DNA of 64,000 nucleotides from Felis catus (Eukaryota), in the NCBI RefSeq assembly GCF_018350175.1, contig NC_058368.1, positions 99,512,001-99,576,000 of the forward strand, given 5' to 3'. A program made the translations under genes and the position numbers. Below, piece after piece: positions 8,088-29,262 of the stretch. Each line of letters begins with the position of its first letter. Positions within the stretch are counted from its first letter, which is position 1. Below the pieces are notes generated by a model. That model was not told the DNA's origin. It ran no database searches and saw only the letters and a program-made list of their open reading frames with translations.

Positions 8088-8259
8088 CTATATTGTTTTT
8101 CACAAAATAAAATAAGCAAACTTATTTTTTTAGGAGAAAAGGCACAAAAAAGTTATGAAAAACAAAAGGGAGTGGTCAGCTTTAAACATGCTGGAGAATG
8201 TTTTCCTCCTCTACAAACCTTTATAAATGGCTTCTCAAATGTCATCGTGATAGACTTAC

Positions 8260-8362
8260 CTTTTTTGTATGTTAACACTGAACTACCAAAATGCACTTCT
8301 ACTGTCAAATGGTAGTTACCCTGAGTAATCATAATCAGTATTTGTTTCCCTCAATTAGTTAC
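8260..8362 (-). pseudogene. Exon remnant, REJ module
   Basis: ttttcag|VTN*GKQILIMITQGNYHLTVEVHFGSSVLTYKK|gtaagt vs PKD1 LPVGHYCFVFVVSFGDTPLT. Confidence 0.7.
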
Positions 8363-8544
8363 CTGAAAATGTTACCGGATAGGTTTTTAAAAGAAATCAA
8401 ATAAATACACACTTTTGGATAATTGTCTACATAAAATATTAAGTCGCTATAGGTTAGTAGATAGTAGAGATTATTTACTCACTTTTAAAATTAACCTATT
8501 ACTCAAGTGAATCCATATAAATAGGTGTTATTAAGAATTTTTCT

Positions 8545-9050: not shown

Positions 9051-10326
9051 ATTAATAGCATTTGTTCAGGTATTTAAAACAATAACAACAACAATAATTT
9101 CCAGATGGTACACATGTTTTAAATGCCAAAAAATAAATCAGAAGATAACTTGTTTTATTATGTTGGAGGAGAGAACCCTTTCGAATTATGTCCCAGCCTA
9201 TAAGAAATGTAAGAATATGAGGGAAATGGTCAGCAGCTGGCTTGAAATCTAATCCCTCCTTTTACCAAGAGGTTGCCGCCAGCAATGAAAGAAGGAAAGT
9301 GACCCAGACAAGTCGGGAAAATACACGAATGGCAGACCTGCAGGCAAGTTCACTTAATGGTATTTCTACGGTAGAGACAGACAGCCCTTGTCTCTAGTGC
9401 ACTTTAGGAGCGTGTAATTGGTGTGTCTAGATTATTTATGGTAAATTCAAAGGGAGTCTGTATAATTATGGGTCATATAAAACACTATGTTATTTATACT
9501 GTCAGAGTACAAAGCAATGGTATGCTGTAAGACAGCCCCCTTCTGCATAAACGATCTGATCACATACAAAACTTGAAGACCTCACACTTTAATTAATCTG
9601 ACCCAGGCAAAGAAAATCCTAATATCGAAAGCAGGGACCTGGGGGGTTCTCTTGGTGAACTCAACTACTTAAGGCTCTGCAGCAGGACAGTGTCTTCCTA
9701 TATTCACTCAGTTATCATTAAAACTTAATACTGGTTAAAATCTCTTAATTTGTGCTGATCTAAGCAGCCTGGGGCTTGAAAAGGTGTCTCCTTGAGAGGT
9801 TGGCCTCAGGGATACTGAGCCTCGTGCCATCTCTTCTCAAGCAGCTGATTCTCACTGTGATGCAAAATGCCTCGGTCCATGTCATTATTCCAGCTTGTTG
9901 TCTTCCAACGACTGGATGCTTTTAGGAAGATTTGTATGTAATAAAGTATCTTTATGTTTCTATGGTCTCAGTTTTGTATGAATTTCTTCATCTACCTTTT
10001 CCTGAAGTAGACTTTGAGGTCTCTCTAAGGCCAGAGTCCATGTTATTCCTTACCTACATGTGATGAACTTTGCCCCCGACAAATCATCACTCCTCCCCCA
10101 CCATGTCCAATGTATGTGGCTGATGTCATGATGAAGAGCCAGCACATTGTGCTACCAATCCCCCTATAGTTTACAAGACAGGTAAATGGTACTTTAACAC
10201 TTCAGGAAGCCCTGTTGATCTATAAAGTTCAGTTCTCAGAGCGAATTGTGTTTGTGATCCCTAGTTTACGGTACTGTCTATGAGGAGCAGTCTGACTGTG
10301 CGGGCAGACTGAGCATTAGAAATAGA

Positions 10327-12810: not shown

Positions 12811-13398
12811 CAATAAATACTTCATATATTTAATATTCACCTGACATATCTGATATGAAGGATATGCAGGGTCTAAAGTGCAATATAATAGAGCAATGAC
12901 ATAGTTTAAAATTGAGACTGGTAAATTCAAGTAAGAATGAGTTCTGAATCACAAAGTTGAGTCATTCTTATAAAAATGACAGCGTCAGGGGAAGACGGTA
13001 AACAGTGTTCTGGGACTGTGAACCAAGAACTTGTCAGAGTCACTTTTCCACCAGGCAAAATTCATCATGTGATGGTCTTTGAAATATATCATTTTAGTGT
13101 TCTAACAAATGTAGTAGAGGTAGCCACAGCCAACCATGGGATCTATGAGAAACATTGGAATTGACTCTGTCGAATTACTCACGCTTCTCTAAAATCCTCA
13201 TACACAGCACATAAAATGAGATATCAGCTGATGGTTTTGTTGTTCGGATTTACTGTTGTAAAACCTCACTGTGAAAATTTCCCTTTATAGAGGATCAGTG
13301 AATAAATCCTATATAAAGTAAATAGTTGCTAGATTACATTCGGGATATTACATTTTCTCTGACAATCCAAGGCATGGGTTTGTCGAAAGAAATCTCAC

Positions 13399-13694: not shown

Positions 13695-15430
13695 CTTTTT
13701 TATGGAAGTAGAGTAGACCCACAGTGTCACATTAGTTTCACACATACATAACGGTGATTCAACATCTCTGTGCTTTATGCCGTGCTTACCACCACGGGAG
13801 CTACCATCTGTCACCTACGACACTATTAGGACACCATTCACCATTCACCATTCCCCTTGTGCACTTTTTATTCCTGTGTCTTATTCATTTCATAACTGGA
13901 AACTTGTATCTCCCGCTTCTCATCACCCATTTCTCCCTGCCTTTTCCCCTCTGGCAACCGCCAGTTTGTTGCCCGTGTTTATGGCTCTGTTTCTGCTTTG
14001 TTTATTCATTTGTTTTCTTTTTTTGATTCCACATGTAAATGAATAAGAAGGTATTTGTCTTTCTCTGTTCAACTTATTCCACTCACATCTTCTAGGTCTG
14101 TCCATGTTCTTGAAAATGTCAAACTCTTATTCTTTTAAGTCACTAATATCCCATTGTGTATATATACTATATCTTCTTTATCCATCCAGTATTAGTGGAT
14201 AAAGTTAGGTTACTTCCATATCTTGGCTATTTTAAATAATGCTGTATTATATGTAGAGGTGCATATATCTTTTTAAGCTACTAGTGTTTTTACTTTCTTT
14301 GGGTATATGCCCAGCAGTGGAATTACTGCATCGTATGTTATTTCCATTTTTAATTTTTGGTGCATCTTCCATATTGTTTTTCACAGTGACTGTCCTAACA
14401 GACATTCTCACTAACAGTACAGAACACTTGCTTTTTTCTCCACATCTTTGCCAACACTTACCATTTATTGTCACTTTAATACTAGTTATTCTGACTGCTC
14501 GGAGGTGATACCTCATTGTGGTTTGGGTTTTCATTTCCCTGACGACGAGTGATGTTGAGCACCCTTTCATGTGTCTTTGGCTATTTGTATATCTTATTTG
14601 GAAAAAAAAAAGTCTATTCTGGTCCTCTGTCCATTTCTTTTTTTTTTTTCCTCTGTCCATTTCTTAAATGGATTATTTGTGGGTTTGGTGTTGAGTTGTA
14701 CAACTTCTGCATTATTTTTGGTGTTAATTCTGTATTAGATGTATCAATTGTGAATACGTTGTCCCATTTGGTAGGTTGCCTTTTCATTTTCTTGATGTTT
14801 TACTTCTCTGTGCAAAATCTTTTTAGTTTGGTGTAGTCCCAGTAGTTACTTTTTGTTTTTGTTTCCCTTGCCTGAAGCGACATCTAGAAAAATGTTGGTA
14901 AGGCCAATTTCAAAAAGATTACTGCCTGTTTTCTTCTATGGGTTTTATGATTTCACATCTACTATTTTGGTCTTCTGAGTTTACTTTTATGTTTGATATA
15001 AGCAAGTGGTCCAATTTCATTGATTTGCATGTAGCTATCCTGTTTTCCCAGCACTTAGTGAAAAGACTGTCCCAGTCTTAGTGAAAAGACTGTCTTTTCC
15101 CCATTATGTATTCTTACCCTCTTTTCTCATACATTAATTGACCATATATTTGTGATTTTATTTCTGAGCTCTCCATGTGAGCTCACTGATCTATGTGTCT
15201 GTTTTTATGTCAGTACCATACTGTTTTGATTACTATAACTTTGTAATATAGTTTGAAACCAGGGAATGTGAAACCTTTCAAGATTAATTTTGATATTCAA
15301 GGTCTTTTGTGGTTCCACACAAATTTTAGAATACTTTGTTCCCATTCTATGAAACGTGCCATTGGTATTTTAATTGAGATTGAATTAAATATGTAGATTA
15401 TGTGGGTGTAGCATGGACATTTTAAAGTAG
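13695..15430 (-). mobile_element. 5'-truncated carnivore L1
   Basis: ORF2 motifs ([25 protein letters not shown]) and 3'UTR. Confidence 0.9.
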
Positions 15431-15680
15431 AATAATTTAATCTTCCCTTTAGATATAAGTGGTTTACTCTAATATTTAGCTCTCGAGATGACATTGAATA
15501 AACACATTAAGGGTGTCAGGATATGGGTTCACTAAAGAGGAAAGAATAGGAAAATAGTACATCTTGTTTCAGTACAGATTGTATTGAAAAGAGAACATTA
15601 AAAAAAAAATGAAAGTGAACATTTCTATCTAAGGATCCTAATGGCTAACTTAGCAAAATTTGCAGAAAGTAGTACAACTT

Positions 15681-16084
15681 TGTTGTGGATCCTCTTGTAT
15701 GCTACCCAGATCCACGTCAAAACTGAGAAATTGATCTCCCTGAGGATGGAAAGACTTTTGAGTAACAGATTTTGAACCCTTAGAATTCTAACTCAGCTGA
15801 AGAGAGCCTACCCCAATGTAGGCCTTTGTCAGAGACAGCCTGACTTTTTGCTACAGGGGCCTAAAGACCTAGGTCCCAAACAGAAATCCTCACAACTCAG
15901 TTGGGTCATCATTGCAGTGTTGGTTGAACCCTTCCTGGGACGGACTGCATTGCTGTCCATCTTCATTCTCTGTAGAAACTTGTATATTTATTTTCCCTTC
16001 CGTTGATGTTGATTCCAGTTCACCCCCTAATGATTTTCCAATGGCAACCTGTAAGTCCGCTTCCCCAGAAACACAGCCTTGACA
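15681..16084. mobile_element. LTR16-like ERVL solo LTR
   Basis: tgttgtggat...cccagatcc start, tcagctgaagagagcc core, cttcccc.g.aac...tgaca end. Confidence 0.55.
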
Positions 16085-16230
16085 TTCTCCAACCCTCTCC
16101 TCCTAACTGCCATTATTAGCATATCGAGTAACTAAAGGACATGTCTCTCCCTGGCCTTTGCATTCTTCCTTTGGCAATATATCCACGCCTTTAAGTGAGG
16201 GTAAAGAATGTAAATTCATTGTAAAAATAC

Positions 16231-16510
16231 TTGTTCCAGAGTTGGAGTTGTCGATGACAGGCTAGCTTTCTCCTGACTATTCTTGTCTAAAACCTCAAGA
16301 TAAAATCTCCCATAAGGGAATTTAGTTGTTATGAATTGGTTTTTCTTCTACCACCCCTATTGTATTAATCCTTAAGTCTGTTACTTTACAAGTGTCATCA
16401 CAAAAGTCATATGAGAGTTTTACGAGTTTACCTGTCCTGAGTAAAATTTGCAATAAAAACCATGAGGAAGACATCATAAGAAAGGGAGGGAATACTATCA
16501 CCAGAATTTC
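16231..16510 (-). pseudogene. Exon remnant, last PKD repeat before REJ
   Basis: ILLRTGKLVKLSYDFCDDT (compare GxxVxYxWDFGDG), then GRFYLEVLDKNSQ...TLEQ|gtattt, phase 0. Confidence 0.6.
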
Positions 16511-17116
16511 ATGCATCAGAGCAATCTGGTACAGGGACAATTTTATTTGCATGAAAGGGGTCTTCTTGTGGTCCTTTGTATTGCTTTAATTTTGGGTGAC
16601 GTCTAATCCTACCTGTTAAATCTCAATCCTTTTAACCTTTCATGATGATAGAATTTTCAAATATTCCTTATCATTTTTCTATCTATAATTACATAAATAT
16701 TATCTTACCCAAATAATTTGGTCATTCCCATCTGCAAAGCTAGAAGGTACATTAAGGAATTATATAGGAGACATTTAGTCATGACCTGTTATGCTGGAAG
16801 TTATCCCTCTGAAGATATTTTTTCACATGGGATGAATTATAGACCTTCAGTGACCCTCCCTCACCTATTTGAGCTCTCACCATCCAATACTAGGCTTTTA
16901 GCCTTTGCACACCACAGAAGGGAAAGCTACCTGCTCCTTTTCAGATAGGCTAAAGAAGATAAACTGTGTGGATGTAATAAAATTGGTAATAGCCATGGGT
17001 GTTGCTTATATCCAGGCAGTGCTAATCCCATGAGAAAGACTATCCCCTTATGATCTCTTACATGCAAGCACATGTCTGATGTTGATATGCAGACTGCATA
17101 ATTGTAAATTACTTAC

Positions 17117-17420
17117 AGCATCAGTTGAATCCTTGAGGATCTTATCTAAAATCTTAGGCCTTTTCACTTCTTGCATATGACTTCTTAATGTACTGCAGAA
17201 GCCAAATGAAAGCATTTCTCAGATGTTATCCACAGTAAAATGTGACAAAACTGTATACACAAGAATGTTTTCTGGCTCATATTTTTGTCTGTTTGGAAGG
17301 TATAGGTGGGCCTGCCAATTCTCCATGAGAAAGATTGCTGGATATAAGACCTTTGAACAGATTATTTCCACATGCATCCATAGTCCTTCACATGCACCAA
17401 GCTGAGAGCTGACCAAAACA
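17117..17420 (-). pseudogene. Exon remnant
   Basis: ccctatag acceptor and GCT|gtaagt donor; long mostly open frame VLVSSQLGACEGLWMHVEIICSKVLY; FSWRIG in a shifted frame. Confidence 0.5.
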
Positions 17421-17599
17421 CTATAGGGTAAGACATTAAAAAACAATGCTACATAAGCAAATTATTTAGCTGCTCATGTACCTTTTACTCTTTATTCAAG
17501 GATTTGCAACCTTAAATCAGTTGTGTTTCAGTCAACGGTTTTGGGCATCATTTGCTAGGTACTAGAAATTATAAGATAAAAAATAAAGTGTCCTCAAGG

Positions 17600-17730
17600 A
17601 CTGAGTTTAATGCAACTGAAAATCAGAACTCAAGAATTAATTACAGCTCTAGGCCATAGAAAGGAGTTAGTTTCAATGCCACTGTGACTTGAATATTCTT
17701 CTGGTTTTACCTGAGATGGGATGATGTGAG
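17600..17730 (-). pseudogene. Exon remnant, PKD-like start
   Basis: tcttgtctttgtcttacag|HIIPSQVKP (frameshift) KNIQVTVALKL. Confidence 0.4.
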
Positions 17731-17989
17731 CTGTAAGACAAAGACAAGAGTGAGCATAATCCTTTGAAGAGATTTTGTGTTTGCCCTTACCCCATCTCTT
17801 TGGAGTAGAAGAACCATTTGAGAGTAATTTCTCTTCATCCCAGTTCTCCCCCATCTATGGTGCTCCTTTTGAAAAAAATATTTTCTTTATTAGTCCCTTT
17901 ATTAGTGCTTGGGAGAGGATGACAGAGATTGAGCATATTAGAGAACGAACTGGTGATGATATCTGTTGTTTGTGGAGAAATTTAGAAAC

Positions 17990-18267
17990 TAAGAAACTAA
18001 GAAATTTACAGATGGGAAGACTGTCCTCAACTTGAAACAATGTCTTTCCTGGAGATAAGCTCTGGTTATTAGGGAATTTATTTTACTTATAAAAAGAATG
18101 TCTAACTGAACAGGTGGTTGGAACTGTCTTGGAAAGATTTTTTCCTATCAAAAAGGAGGTCAAACAAGCAAGCTAACTTCTGCATCCATCAAAACTCTTT
18201 TGCTTACCCTCTCCAATTCTTTCCCTTGGTAGTAAAAAGAAACTGCTGCAAAGTTGACAGATAATTC
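17990..18267 (-). pseudogene. Two exon remnants (18208-18267 and 18144 to about 17990) forming one PKD repeat
   Basis: ELSVNFAAVSFYYQ (frameshift) IGEG|KNLSKTVPTTCSVRHSFYK*..NNQSLSPGKTLFQVEDSL across a 63-nt gtaagc...tttgatag intron. Confidence 0.55.
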
Positions 18268-18529
18268 CTAAAATCCTAGATTTGTTCTAATATTTCTTTG
18301 CTCAGGTTAAAATGTATTAATCCAACATTTTAAAGATGATATTATGTGAATTCACTTATAAAATATAATTGCTATAACACTCCTTCAGTAGTGGTTCCTT
18401 TGGATGCTGCAATGCATGTCCAGTTCTAGATTCTCCTTTGTACTTAACCAGTAAGGCACAATTTTCACATTTCAACACATCGTTTAGGAGCACACAGGTT
18501 TGTACGTTTCCAATTTTCTTTTTCATTAC

Positions 18530-18760
18530 TCTAGTGCCACAATATAATTGGATCTGCAATTACTAACATAGATCTCCTCTTAGAATCTCCCACCCTTAGA
18601 AATTTAGAGACTGAAATTCTGAGAAATGCTTTAATGGCATTCTCTTGATGTCTCCCTTATTCAAAGGAAAATTTACCCTGAAGTGCCACAAGACTCTTTC
18701 ATCAGCAGTGAAGCTATGTTGATTTATGAAATAGAGTAGTTGCCATGCATTAGTATGAAG
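18530..18760 (-). pseudogene. Possible exon remnant, PKD-like
   Basis: HSFTADERVLWHFRVNF and MLVIADPII (compare VxVxEPI); boundaries unclear. Confidence 0.35.
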
Positions 18761-19150
18761 GAAGAGCAGCCGTGTGTAGTGAATAATAGGGAGAAAGAGA
18801 GACAGACACACAGACAGACAGACACCTGGAAGAAACAGAATGATAGATGCACTTAATATGGTTCTGCACAAAACCAAGGAGTTCTCTTTTACAGGAATAA
18901 TAGAGAAATGATCTCTAGTAATAGTCCTGGATGTCATTCTCTCACATGTACAACACGCTCCAAAAAAATAGAAGCATTACATACAACACCCAGTGCTCAT
19001 CCCAACAAGTGCGAGCTGTTGCATATGAGCAATGAGCCACGGGAATCTACCCCCAAAAACCAAGAGCACACTTTACACGCTGTATGTCAGCCAATTTGAC
19101 AGTAACTTTTAGTAAAAACTAATTTAAAAATATAAACAATAGAAAACTAA

Positions 19151-19420
19151 AGGGGCGCCTGGGTGGCGCAGTCGGTTAAGCGTCCGACTTCAGCCAGGTC
19201 ACGATCTCGCGGTCTGTGAGTTCGAGCCCCGCGTCAGGCTCTGGGCTGATGGCTCAGAGCCTGGAGCCTGTTTCCGATTCTGTGTCTCCCTCTCTCTCTG
19301 CCCCTCTCCCATTCATGCTCTGTCTCTCTCTGTCCCAAAAATAAATAAACGTTGAAAAAACAAATTTAAAAAAAGAGAAAAAAAAAGAAAAAAAAAGAAA
19401 AAAAAAGAAAAATAAATACA
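19151..19420 (+). mobile_element. Young felid SINE (SINEC_Fc type)
   Basis: ggggcgcctgggtggcgcagtcggttaagcgtccgacttcagccagg; long A-rich tail. Confidence 0.97.
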
Positions 19421-19642
19421 ATAAAATATTTTATATGATGTAAAATATTATGCTGGGAAGTTCTTTAACTTTGTAAGTTAACCAGAAAAGTAAATAATTT
19501 TTACAAATACTCTACATGAGCATGCAATTAATAATTTTGCCCCCAAAGTTACCTTCCTCTGAATCTGGCTTTTTCTCAAAGAACCTGTATTGTATTTTTT
19601 CTGCCTTTCCCTTGCTCACCCTCTCCTTTTTTTTTCTCTTAC

Positions 19643-19650
<8 letters not shown>

Positions 19651-19676
<26 letters not shown>

Positions 19677-19697
19677 CGCACGCGTGTGTGTGTGTGT
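19651..19697. repeat. (TG)n microsatellite
   Basis: Visible. Confidence 0.95.
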
Positions 19698-19731
19698 AGC
19701 TTAAAATGTTAAGATCCAGGTGTGTGCTTAC

Positions 19732-20482
19732 TGTGACCTGCCATATTTGTATTTGGTGTGTACCTAACATTTTAGCCAGCTGAATACACAATGGTCGACC
19801 TGATTGTGCACATAGGTGCCAAAATATACAATCCTCTTTGTTTATTCTTCCAAATTATTACCCCAAGTAAGACCCCCTCTTAATGAGGTGCTCATTACAG
19901 TAATTCCTCTTGATCTGCAGAGTATGTGTTCCAAGACATCCAGCCCCCAGTCGACGTCTGAAACCTAGATAGTACCAAACCCTGTGTATACTATGTTTTT
20001 TCCTAAACATGCATACGTAGGATAAAGTATAATTTATAAAGTAGACACAGTAAGAGATTAGCAACAATAACTGGTAATAAAATAGAACAATTATAACAGT
20101 ATGCTGTAATAAAATTATGTGAATGCGGTCTCTCCACACCTCACTCTCAAAATACTGTACCAGATTCACCCTCCTTGTGTTGATGCGACTTTACAAAGTG
20201 CCTACGTGATGAGAAGTTAGGTTCATGACACAGGCACTGTGACTTAGTGCTTGATGATAAGACGTAAGGAGGATCACCTGCTTTGGGGCCTGTGTTAACT
20301 GTGAATTAACTGAAACTGGAAAACAAAACGATGCATGAGGAAGGACTAATGTATTCCCAAAGAGTTCTGTTCCATAATCAGATTTGGATAATATTAAAAT
20401 TCTTTCTATTACATCAAAATCCATTACCCTGTATTTTCTGCCCATTTAACCTACTTGAAACCATTTCAGCAGTTGTAGTTAA
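19732..20482 (-). pseudogene. PKD-repeat exon split by a MER44 insertion (19898-20351)
   Basis: Removing the element and one TA gives the in-frame read FDVIERILILSKSDYGTELFGNNEHLIKRGSYLG**FGRINKEDCIFWHLCAQSGRPLCIQLAKMLGTHQIQIWQVT|gtaagc. Confidence 0.65.
19898..20351. mobile_element. MER44/Tigger7-derived DNA transposon
   Basis: cagta... left terminus, ...gactaatg right terminus, TA on both sides; internal MER44 motifs (gttccaagac..cccccagt, cacagtaagagatta.caacaataact). Confidence 0.85.
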
Positions 20483-20487
20483 CTGAG

Positions 20488-20500
20488 TGCTATGGTCTGA

Positions 20501-20547
<47 letters not shown>

Positions 20548-20861
20548 TGTCCCACACCCTGCCAAATTCATATATTGAAAACCTAATGCCCAAAGGTATT
20601 GGGACCTTTTGGATGTGATTAGGTCATGAGGGCACAGCCCTTGTGTATAAGATTAATTTCTTTATAAACAAGGCTCTGGAGAGGTAGCTCCTCCCTTCTG
20701 TCTTGTGAAGATATGAGAAGTGTATGGAAGGGCCTCACCCAACCATGCCAGCATCTTGATCTGGGACTTCTGGTCTCCAGTACTGTGGCAAATAACTTTC
20801 TCTTAAATATAAACTGCCTAGCTCACAGTAATGTGGTATAGAAGCCTGATGGACCATGACC
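20488..20861 (+). mobile_element. MLT1A0-type MaLR solo LTR with internal (TG)n
   Basis: tgctatggtctgaatg start; 5-bp TSD ctgag on both sides. Confidence 0.85.
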
Positions 20862-21224
20862 CTGAGGGGGAGTAGTCCCCAAGCCCCTCCCCCCCAGTCC
20901 TTCACTCCTGGTTTGCTGATAGGCTACTATCACTCACATATCCTACCAGAAGTAGGTTTTGTTCTAACTTCATCTACAACCCCCTGACTTGAGGTGGCTT
21001 ACCTTCCAGGACACATGGTTTTCCTCTAGCCTCATTTCATTTTTTTCCCCAGCAGTTGCATCATCTGAATGGAAGTAGAAACTTGTTCCACAGTAGTTAC
21101 TGTATTTCCACAAGGAGTACACTCTTCTATTATTTCTTCCATGTTTTCTACATTTTTTAAAAATAATTTACAGGTTTCTCTTAGAAATAATATATTTGTA
21201 ATAGTTGTGACATTTAAAGTTCTT

Positions 21225-21440
21225 GGGGCTCCTGGGTGGCTCAGCCAGATAAGCAAACCACTCGTGATTGCCACTTAGGTCATTATCTCACAGTTAGTGG
21301 GTTCGAGCCCTGCATCGGGCTCTGCACTGACAGCGCAAAGCCAGCTTGGAATTCTGTCTCTCCCTCTCTCTCTCTGCCCCTCTCTGGTGTGTACTCTCTC
21401 TTTCTTTCTCTCTCTCAAAAATAAATAATCATTAAAAAAA
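21225..21440 (+). mobile_element. Can-SINE
   Basis: SINE consensus. Confidence 0.9.
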
Positions 21441-21596
21441 ATAAGATTCTAATATGATGTTATCTTTTCCCATAGGAATTCATGAACATAAATTTTACAT
21501 ATCCCATAATTCCTTGTTTCTTTATATTGCATCTCATCTATGTTTCCTGCCCCCCACCTGTTTCTTACATTTTTTGGATATGAATAGTTTACTATT

Positions 21597-21822
21597 CTTT
21601 TTAATATTTATCTATTTATTTATTTTATTTTTGAGAGAGAGAGAAAGAGAGAGAGAGCATGAGTGGGGGAGGGGCAGAGAGAGAGGGAAACACAGAATCT
21701 GAAGCAGGCTCCAGGCTCTGAGCTGTCAGAACAGAGCCTGACGTGGGGCTTGAACCCACTAATCATGAGATCATGACCTGGGCCAAAGTTGAATGCTCAA
21801 CCACCTGAGCCACCCAGGTGCC
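21597..21822 (-). mobile_element. Can-SINE
   Basis: SINE consensus on minus. Confidence 0.95.
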
Positions 21823-22502
21823 ACAAGAGTTTATTTTAATTTCAACATTTTTTGTCTGTACTCTTGTCTTCTTTTTTAGTTTTTATTTAAACTCCAGTTA
21901 GTTACCATTTATTCTGTACTAATTTCAAAGTGATACAACCTGTTTCTAACTTTTACTTGGTACCCAAGAAACTGCAATATGAATATTTAGTTTAATTTTG
22001 TCATCTTTAATCTCATGTGACTTACACTTGTTGTTGGAATACTTGTTAATTCTATATTTTTAAAATTTGATCCCTAGGATATATCATTATGTTTTCAAGT
22101 AGTCTATATTTAATTAAGTTTCCTACCATTTTCCTAGTTACTTTTCCCCATATCTTTCCTGTTCTTTAAATCTTCCAGCTGGAATGGAAATTCAGCATTC
22201 AAAAATCCTCCAGGTATGTCTATATTTTGTTTTCTGGAAACAGTTTTCTTGTGGCCATACTCTTGAAATAAATCTTCACCAGGCATCTGTTCCTTATTCC
22301 AGCACAGAAGGAAAGACCGTTTGTCTGTCCTCTGGATCCAGCTGTGGCTTCTGGGAAGTCCCTTCTCAGTCTGAATGTTACTTTTTAAAGATATTTTTGT
22401 CTATTTCTAAAATGATCTTTTTGTCTTATCGGGTTTGAAATTGCACCATAAAGTGTCTGGATGTAAATCTCCTTATATCTGTCACACTTGAGATTTTCTC
22501 TT

Positions 22503-22776
22503 TGTCTTGGTCCATTTGGGCAACTCTAACAAAAATATCATAAACTGGATGGCTTCTAAGCAACACCCATTTCTCAGAATTTTCTATAACATTACATGGC
22601 AGGAGAGGCAAGGGAATGTTCTCAAGCATCTTTTATAAGGGCACTCACCCCATTCATGAGGGATCCACTTTCATGACTTAATCACCTCCCAGTAACCCGA
22701 CCTCCTAATACTATCACCTTAGGGGTAAGGTTTCAACATAGGAATTTTGAGGGACACAAGCACAGGGATCATAGCA
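22503..22776 (-). mobile_element. MLT1A-type LTR (internally deleted) inside an old L1
   Basis: tgtcttggtccattt...cccattcatgaggg...catagca. Confidence 0.8.
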
Positions 22777-27290: not shown

Positions 27291-29262
27291 TCTTTTTTTT
27301 TAAAGAGGTTTTAATGAAGGGGCCTTTGACATAGGTGCAAACAGAATTCAGGCAAATCAAAAAAAGATGATGACATATACCTGGTATAGTAGCAACAGCA
27401 AGCAGACTACCACCTCTAGACCTGAAGGGGCAAGTGGAGTGGGTTCTAACATCCAGCAAGACCCATAGCTATTAGGGAGCTGCCATGGTCTAGCAGCACA
27501 GGAGCCAGGGGACAAAATCCAAATTTCCCACCTCTCCCACTTTTAATATCTTAATGGTCTTTAATGAGCTCCTAATGGCAAAACCCAACTGAGAGACATG
27601 GGAACAATAAAACCTGGACTGTAGGGTAGGAAGGAAACAATAGAGGATACACTTAAAGGAGCCACAGGAGAGTATCCTGCTATGTGTGCGGTTTAAGGAA
27701 ATGATACCTTGAAAACTAAGACAGATCTATTAGTCTATAAACATGCAGACTCATTACACTGATAAAGAAGAAATAACATTAGAAGGTAAATAATGCCTAA
27801 TTTTCTAAAAGCTATAGATATTTCTAGAGTTTGTGTAAAATACTACCAACAAAATTTCTCTTAAGCATAGACTCTAAAGTGACTTAAAGCATGTTCTTGT
27901 TTTCTTTTATGGGTCTATAAGTTTGAGTTCTCATAAAACTTAAGGTTGTATTATGAGCAAAGACAAGATCTAGTCCGAACATTTAGCAATAAATACTCAT
28001 AAATAAAAGGCTTTATACGATTTGTATATATATTTTATTTTTGTTAGAAATAGTGTTACAATTTTACATCATGAATGAGAGAACTAGTTTCCAAGAATAT
28101 TAAATTATATAGTTCTTTTACTAATGTATGACCAAAGGAGACAAAATTAGGCTCATTGAGACATCTTGTTAAAAAACAAATATAAAACACAGGCACACAT
28201 TTATACCCTATGGGGCTGAAATTGACGGAGTGAAGAAGGAAAGTGAGAGTCAACACAAAGATGACAGAAATTGGATTTCTCTTGACTATAATAGAGTTTT
28301 CTACCTTCTTCCTTCAATATTGAAATAATTCTAGATTCTGGAACTTTTCATTATATTTTAATTTCAGTTATTTCTGTGTTCTTCCTTTATATTAAAGGAA
28401 AAAACCCAAAAATTATCCATCACTGCCATGTTAATCTTGTTTGTATTTAATTCAACTTAATACAACTTGGAACTTCTCCACCTTTATAATTTAAATGACA
28501 TAAAAACCTTTTGATTTAAAATCTACAATTTTGAATTCCATTCCTCATATTGTCCATGCTTTTTGAGATCTGTGGAAATGATATTACTTTAATTGGATAT
28601 CATGGCTTATCACAATTTTTGTCAACAACAATACAGTGTGACTTGGTCAAACTTTTATTGGGAACTCGATTTCTTTTTCATGTTTTCCCCTAAGTTCCAG
28701 AATAATAAATTGTTATAAATCCCTTGGTCACCTGTGGATTATAATTTTAAGATACCCTAAGGTCACAGTTCCTCCAGACTTTCTCAGCTAGCTTTTGTGA
28801 CAGTACTTTGAATTTCTGCCACTAATATTGTGATCTTAGAAGATTTTAAGAGCTTAAAAACTTAAAAACAGTATTAATATTACAGCATTAAAAAGCATTG
28901 TAATGGACAGATAGAACTTTGAAAAAGACCCCCAATAATGGAACATAGTATACAGAAATGTGTATGGGTTGCCTTACAGGGGCAATTATTGATAATGGGC
29001 TATTATTTTAGATTCTTGTGCCTAAACTAGACTCCAAAGTGAAGATTTTCAGTAAATTATATTAGAATTTAGTGGAAAAAAAAGAAAAAGTGAGATGCTT
29101 GGTTATTTGTATAATGTATTTTCTTATTTTATATAATTTGTTCTAGAATTACTCAAGTTGGAGGAGAAAAATCAATTTTTAGTGCAGGCTGATTAGTCTT
29201 AGGCACCATTGTAAAACAACAGCTAATAATACCATTTAATGGCCGATAAAATATTTACAAAC

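Follow-up and report, generated by a model that had tools for sequence, protein, structure and literature searches.

Two old insertions interrupt what is probably a real dead exon on the minus strand of the window, that is, the whole stretch of 64,000 nucleotides of Felis catus DNA that was analysed (NC_058368.1, positions 99,512,001 to 99,576,000). The exon would be left over from a gene of several exons that died long ago and that was most likely polycystin-1-like, with PKD repeats. Anatomically, a Tigger-type element has gone into a TA of the exon, and at what appears to be its acceptor there is an inserted MaLR LTR. Judged by divergence and by the published order of the families, both insertions would have taken place around or after the primate-carnivore split, probably when the gene had already died or become dispensable. 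They would then set a lower limit on how long the gene has been decaying in the carnivore line, without dating the first disabling hit, and human need not share them. We consider this reading, of a dead polycystin-1-like exon with insertions near or after the split, somewhat better than an even bet. What the insertions do show is damage with an age of tens of millions of years; they show neither sharing with human nor that they killed the gene.

The decayed exon lies in two halves, a 5' half at 20354..20482 and a 3' half at 19732..19897, both read on the minus strand. When the insert between them and one TA (456 nt in all) were removed, the minus-strand frame was stop-free for 30 codons before the junction and for 12 codons after it. 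Past these 12 codons there are two adjacent stops (19860-19855) and then 41 open codons up to a weak donor-like GT after 19732, the score of which is under the 2.0 print cut-off of the splice matrix. The exon has additional lesions in the 5' half, namely, a stop at 20448-46 and one frame change that is required near the 5' end. An earlier note, made from the letters of this DNA, had claimed that excision restores one reading frame; the frame does join across the junction, but the note did not mention the two adjacent stops, the stop at 20448-46 or the frame change. By chance alone a stretch could be as open as the emptied exon (P=0.23 for the best of three frames). A frame shift directly after the two adjacent stops was considered and dropped because the same frame stays open for 41 more codons; the local profile favoured another frame in the 3' half beyond these stops. 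Unitary pseudogenes can be dated by the repeats inserted in them, provided that the orthologous site is compared across several species. As in the unitary pseudogenes that have been dated by repeats, there are stops, frame changes and repeats inside exons in the window, and the stops and the frame change of this exon are disabling lesions of the kind expected in a unitary pseudogene.

The insert at 19898..20351 is a TA-flanked, non-autonomous DNA transposon of 454 nt on the minus strand, which we take to be Tigger7/MER44-like from the look of its ends. As in Tigger7/MER44 elements, it is bracketed by a TA target-site duplication, with the left copy at 19896..19897 and the right copy at 20352..20353. 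Its ends look like decayed inverted arms in which 12 of 24-25 bases match between the ends, and these arms are absent from the list of 19 inverted pairs found in the window. Among three matches from pattern scans of genome contigs one, L245, is a true copy, and the insert is an interspersed element because this further copy has unrelated flanks; the same kind of scan found no further copies in viral contigs and none in phages. L245 is identical to the insert in 159 of 201 alignment columns over 20115-19899. Since the alignment ends at the left boundary of the insert, this boundary is real. The element that was said to be excisable at 19898-20351 with one TA is therefore upheld by the TA pair, by the length of 454 nt and by the boundary that L245 backs. 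L245 itself (482-692) is a mammalian-type transposon copy at the end of a contig in a bacterial metagenome-assembled genome and is probably host contamination. The insert is like MER44A-D, the Tigger7 derivatives, in its TA target, its putative terminal inverted arms and its lack of transposase, and unlike them in being nearly stop-free in the frame of the host exon. The derivation of MER44A-D from Tigger7 is given in PMC5753468, and the length of the insert falls between those of MER44A (339 nt) and MER44B (550 nt) in the supplement of PMC1914374.

The LTR is a solo MaLR-type element of 374 nt at 20488..20861 on the plus strand, with a TG microsatellite at 20502-20550, and it is presumably MLT1A0-like, judged by its ends. 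It is flanked by CTGAG at 20483..20487 and by an exact match at 20862..20866; within 20400-20950 this motif occurs at these two places only, and an exact 5-mer duplication by chance has a probability of 0.0006. The minus-strand end of the left copy is the candidate acceptor AG, which scored 1.5 with the LTR removed versus -3.7 with the LTR in place. The presence of an MLT1A0-type LTR with the target duplication ctgag, as well as its position at the acceptor of the exon, had been proposed before; the exact duplication around the element confirms an inserted LTR, presumably of this subfamily, and the acceptor scores in the emptied and filled states fit the proposed position. With the LTR removed, the frame likewise runs open through its insertion site, and the LTR may lie inside a longer exon rather than at an acceptor. 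In PMC1914374, the MLT1A0 solo LTR of the MaLR type has, like the LTR in the window, a 5-bp target duplication, and the MLT1A0 consensus is about 365 nt as against 374 nt here, the latter including a 49-nt microsatellite. A second MLT1A-type LTR, at about 22567-22764 and in the opposite orientation, is identical to the LTR at 20488-20861 at 121 of 185 positions.

The likeliest reading of the exon is that it comes from a polycystin-1-like gene with PKD repeats, and it is suggested by weak strand-consistent signals and by a resemblance by eye to polycystin-1. Neither PKD nor REJ of Pfam was found in any of 82 sequences, which were selected non-repeat pieces of the window with the exon entered as separate halves. 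Sequence searches of the PDB, where a single short PKD domain of PKD1 was to be found among the 33 profile hits, gave nothing relevant, and hhalign gave nothing. A match to Ephrin_rec_like at about 21120 (E=0.011, below the cut-off) and those to four other sub-threshold Pfam families were taken as chance. PKD repeats were gathered by motif scans and built into frameshift-aware profiles of our own, s1 from 116 PKD repeats and s2 from 17 metazoan repeats. Two of the profile seeds, L131 and L158, come from metagenome contigs; these ORFs (1,232 and 1,328 residues) resemble by eye the PKD array of an invertebrate polycystin-1 with REJ following on. In the whole-domain fit to s1 the emptied exon had a z of 2.3, a score that was reached by 0 of 100 shuffles; z was 0.6 for the filled exon, -1.1 for the plus strand and 2.8 for the candidate preceding exon. 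One of 12 controls likewise exceeded all of its 100 shuffles, with a z of 2.6. With s2, 18 of 100 shuffles were as good as the emptied exon. Local PKD profile scores for the exon were not significant and a phage-PKD profile gave no signal. Thus, the PKD repeat that the earlier note placed across the junction has no match in Pfam, in the PDB or by hhalign, and what speaks for it is the weak signal from our own profile s1; the result with s2 and the control that scored as well speak against it.

Other candidate pieces of the gene lie on the same strand. The candidate preceding exon, at 21003..21200, has a donor score of 7.0, the 99th percentile of the GT sites of that strand being 5.2, and its donor at 21003 would leave an intron of 136 nt up to the LTR target site. 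A long decayed exon-like stretch at 15640..17400 probably belongs to the same gene as the exon at 19732-20482. With an invertebrate polycystin profile, the minus strand of 15600-18900 exceeded 30 of 30 shuffles and the plus strand did not, and the minus-strand tile 16001-18000 ranked 12 among 62 real-sequence tiles; no support was found for a plus-strand reading of 15600-17900. The AlphaFold prediction for 15641-16519 had a mean pLDDT of 29.5 and is uninformative. A candidate downstream exon of 103 nt at 8260..8362 has a strong donor (8.0) and looks by eye like the start of a REJ module, with no match in Pfam; when 8200-8420 on the minus strand was compared with REJ, 1 of 100 shuffles reached its score, this being one of 14 tests, and a REJ scan of the whole window was not discriminating. 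Two exon-like pieces on the minus strand, 9770-9950 and 12990-13142, fit by eye an order of PKD and then REJ; neither was significant in profile tests, where 11 and 12 of 100 shuffles, respectively, reached their scores. The non-repeat, coding-looking stretch 28150-28950 gave no signal in Pfam or with the profiles, whichever strand was read. The scanned pieces yielded no PLAT, GPS or polycystin channel part, PLAT and the channel being expected mostly beyond the left end of the window, and Rfam gave no match in 15000-22000.

The stretch at 15656-16172 has homologues (P0002-P0006). A phmmer search with 15641-16519 gave two proteins, from short ENA and Logan contigs, with E values of about 4e-5 and 6e-5. 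Each aligns with 15656-16172, at an identity of about 33-36%, and stops short of the insertion site. For P0003 the matches fall in two different frames of the window, and P0002 and P0003 agree in 87 of 93 C-terminal residues and differ in their N-terminal parts, as a frame change would make them do. We read P0002 and P0003 as ORFs that probably arose by chance in the homologous DNA of other mammals, one of them or both with a frame change. If so, this DNA is broken in at least one organism besides the cat. The homologue searches, word-based ones included, gave no intact vertebrate relative, a weak negative given their three-word threshold and 2,000-residue ceiling, and related-locus scans with alignment A1 gave none in three collections.

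It is improbable, in our estimation, that the flanks are not a polycystin exon at all and are instead old non-coding DNA, an older unrecognised repeat or part of another gene family, with PKD-like words in them by chance. The missing library match, the openness of the emptied exon within chance, its weak donor and acceptor, the uninformative predicted structure and an Atlas that is blank for P0002 and P0003 would all agree with this. It has to account, however, for a weak PKD signal that is strand-consistent over three neighbouring pieces and for strong donors at 21003 and 8260 on that same strand. With the 22-nt seed excluded, the insert differs from L245 by 23% (JC 0.28), while four SINE copies in the window, used as a yardstick in six pairs, differ by 4-17%. 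Because of this difference between 23% and 4-17%, a recent, felid-only insertion is unlikely. A still older date, with the insertion before the primate-carnivore split and common to human and dog and with the death of the gene in the placental or boreoeutherian stem, is a reading that we regard as unlikely, but the age of the insert copy fits it, as does the broken homologous DNA in other organisms, and PMC12212084 describes Tigger7 as ancient, dating it to about 90 million years ago or near that, or earlier. Against it, Tigger7 is ordered after MLT1A0, and is thus the younger, in Giordano 2007, PMC1914374 (249 versus 236 in human, 238 versus 228 in cow, 254 versus 240 in dog), and the same paper cites MLT1A0 insertions that are specific to primates and rodents or to carnivores and artiodactyls. 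The subfamily counts listed in the supplement of PMC1914374 are also very uneven, to which species-specific repeat libraries may contribute: there are 801 MER44C in human, 13 in cow and 8 in dog, and MER44B has 11 rows with none of them in the dog sheet. The Tigger7/MER44 and MLT1A0 families straddle the primate-carnivore split, and therefore sharing with human cannot be assumed; the presence of a family in primates and carnivores is not sufficient for one insertion to be shared. The proposal of an ancient MER44/Tigger7 insertion is partly supported, in that the copy is 23% diverged from L245 but belongs to a family ordered after one that has clade-specific insertions. An old death with remnants in other mammals is supported by the broken homologous DNA of P0002 and P0003 and not by the dating argument that was offered for it, that is, the presence of the family and the knock-out step.

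The knock-out step is weakened because the insert keeps the frame and has one stop. An insertion bounds the death of a gene only if it is disabling. With one TA the insert makes 152 codons, and in the exon frame on the minus strand it has a single stop (20193-20191) where dinucleotide shuffles average 7.9 (P=0.0024 in this frame, or 0.006 if any of the three frames is allowed). Over the part that aligns to L245, none of the six stops that L245 has in the exon frame is present in the insert in the window, versus 20 of 24 in the other five frames (Fisher P=0.00035; simulation P=0.00075). All six of these stops are within an ungapped block of 127 nt. With the 456 nt preserving the exon frame, these numbers could mean that a living gene carried the insert in frame, or that a later ORF was translated, with the 152-codon insert losing its stops and the death of the gene coming later by other lesions, such as the insertion of the LTR at the acceptor. 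We regard this as very improbable. The stop pattern was spotted after the fact, it was compared with the single other copy, L245, and the six stops may be private to that copy or its subfamily. Third-position changes are not in excess (15 versus 25), we infer no stepwise path by which the loss of six stops could be selected one by one, and the ORF of 84 aa across one junction is absent from the protein collection. Chance or a subfamily difference is a more likely explanation of the missing stops than translation. The two ORFs across the insert junctions on the minus strand are that of 84 aa (20445-20191) and one of 103 aa (20169-19858). The boldest combination, to which we give very little credence, is that a giant polycystin-1-like gene, either pkd1b or a paralogue without a name, survives unannotated as a fossil in placentals, and that the carnivore line read a Tigger-derived insert of 152 residues in frame within one of its PKD repeats, the stops of the insert being lost before the final death. 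For the nearly stop-free insert to be of weight, those stops would have to be present in the other copies that carnivores have of the family.

We return to the reading that we prefer, that of a dead polycystin-1-like exon with insertions near or after the split. The window probably lies in a block of cat chromosome A1 that matches human 5q, where we know of no PKD-repeat gene; this is a lead only. According to England 2017 (PMC5318412), pkd1b is present in shark, gar and teleosts and not in human or mouse, and the pkd1b and polycystin-1-like genes described there have PKD repeats and REJ, whereas PLAT, GPS and channel parts were not found in the window pieces scanned here. If the exon belongs to a polycystin-1 paralogue, then mammals would once have had an additional polycystin-1-like gene, and the fossil would place a loss that England 2017 set only within the lobe-finned line. 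In the openly accessible literature, bioRxiv supplements excepted, no published account of such a polycystin fossil was found. As insertions, the two elements are ordinary and would be useful as presence/absence markers near the primate-carnivore split. The window is rich in SINE and L1 pieces, the repeat classes being assigned by eye, and at 21900-22470 on the minus strand there is a decayed reading that we take to be like an L1/HAL1 ORF1.
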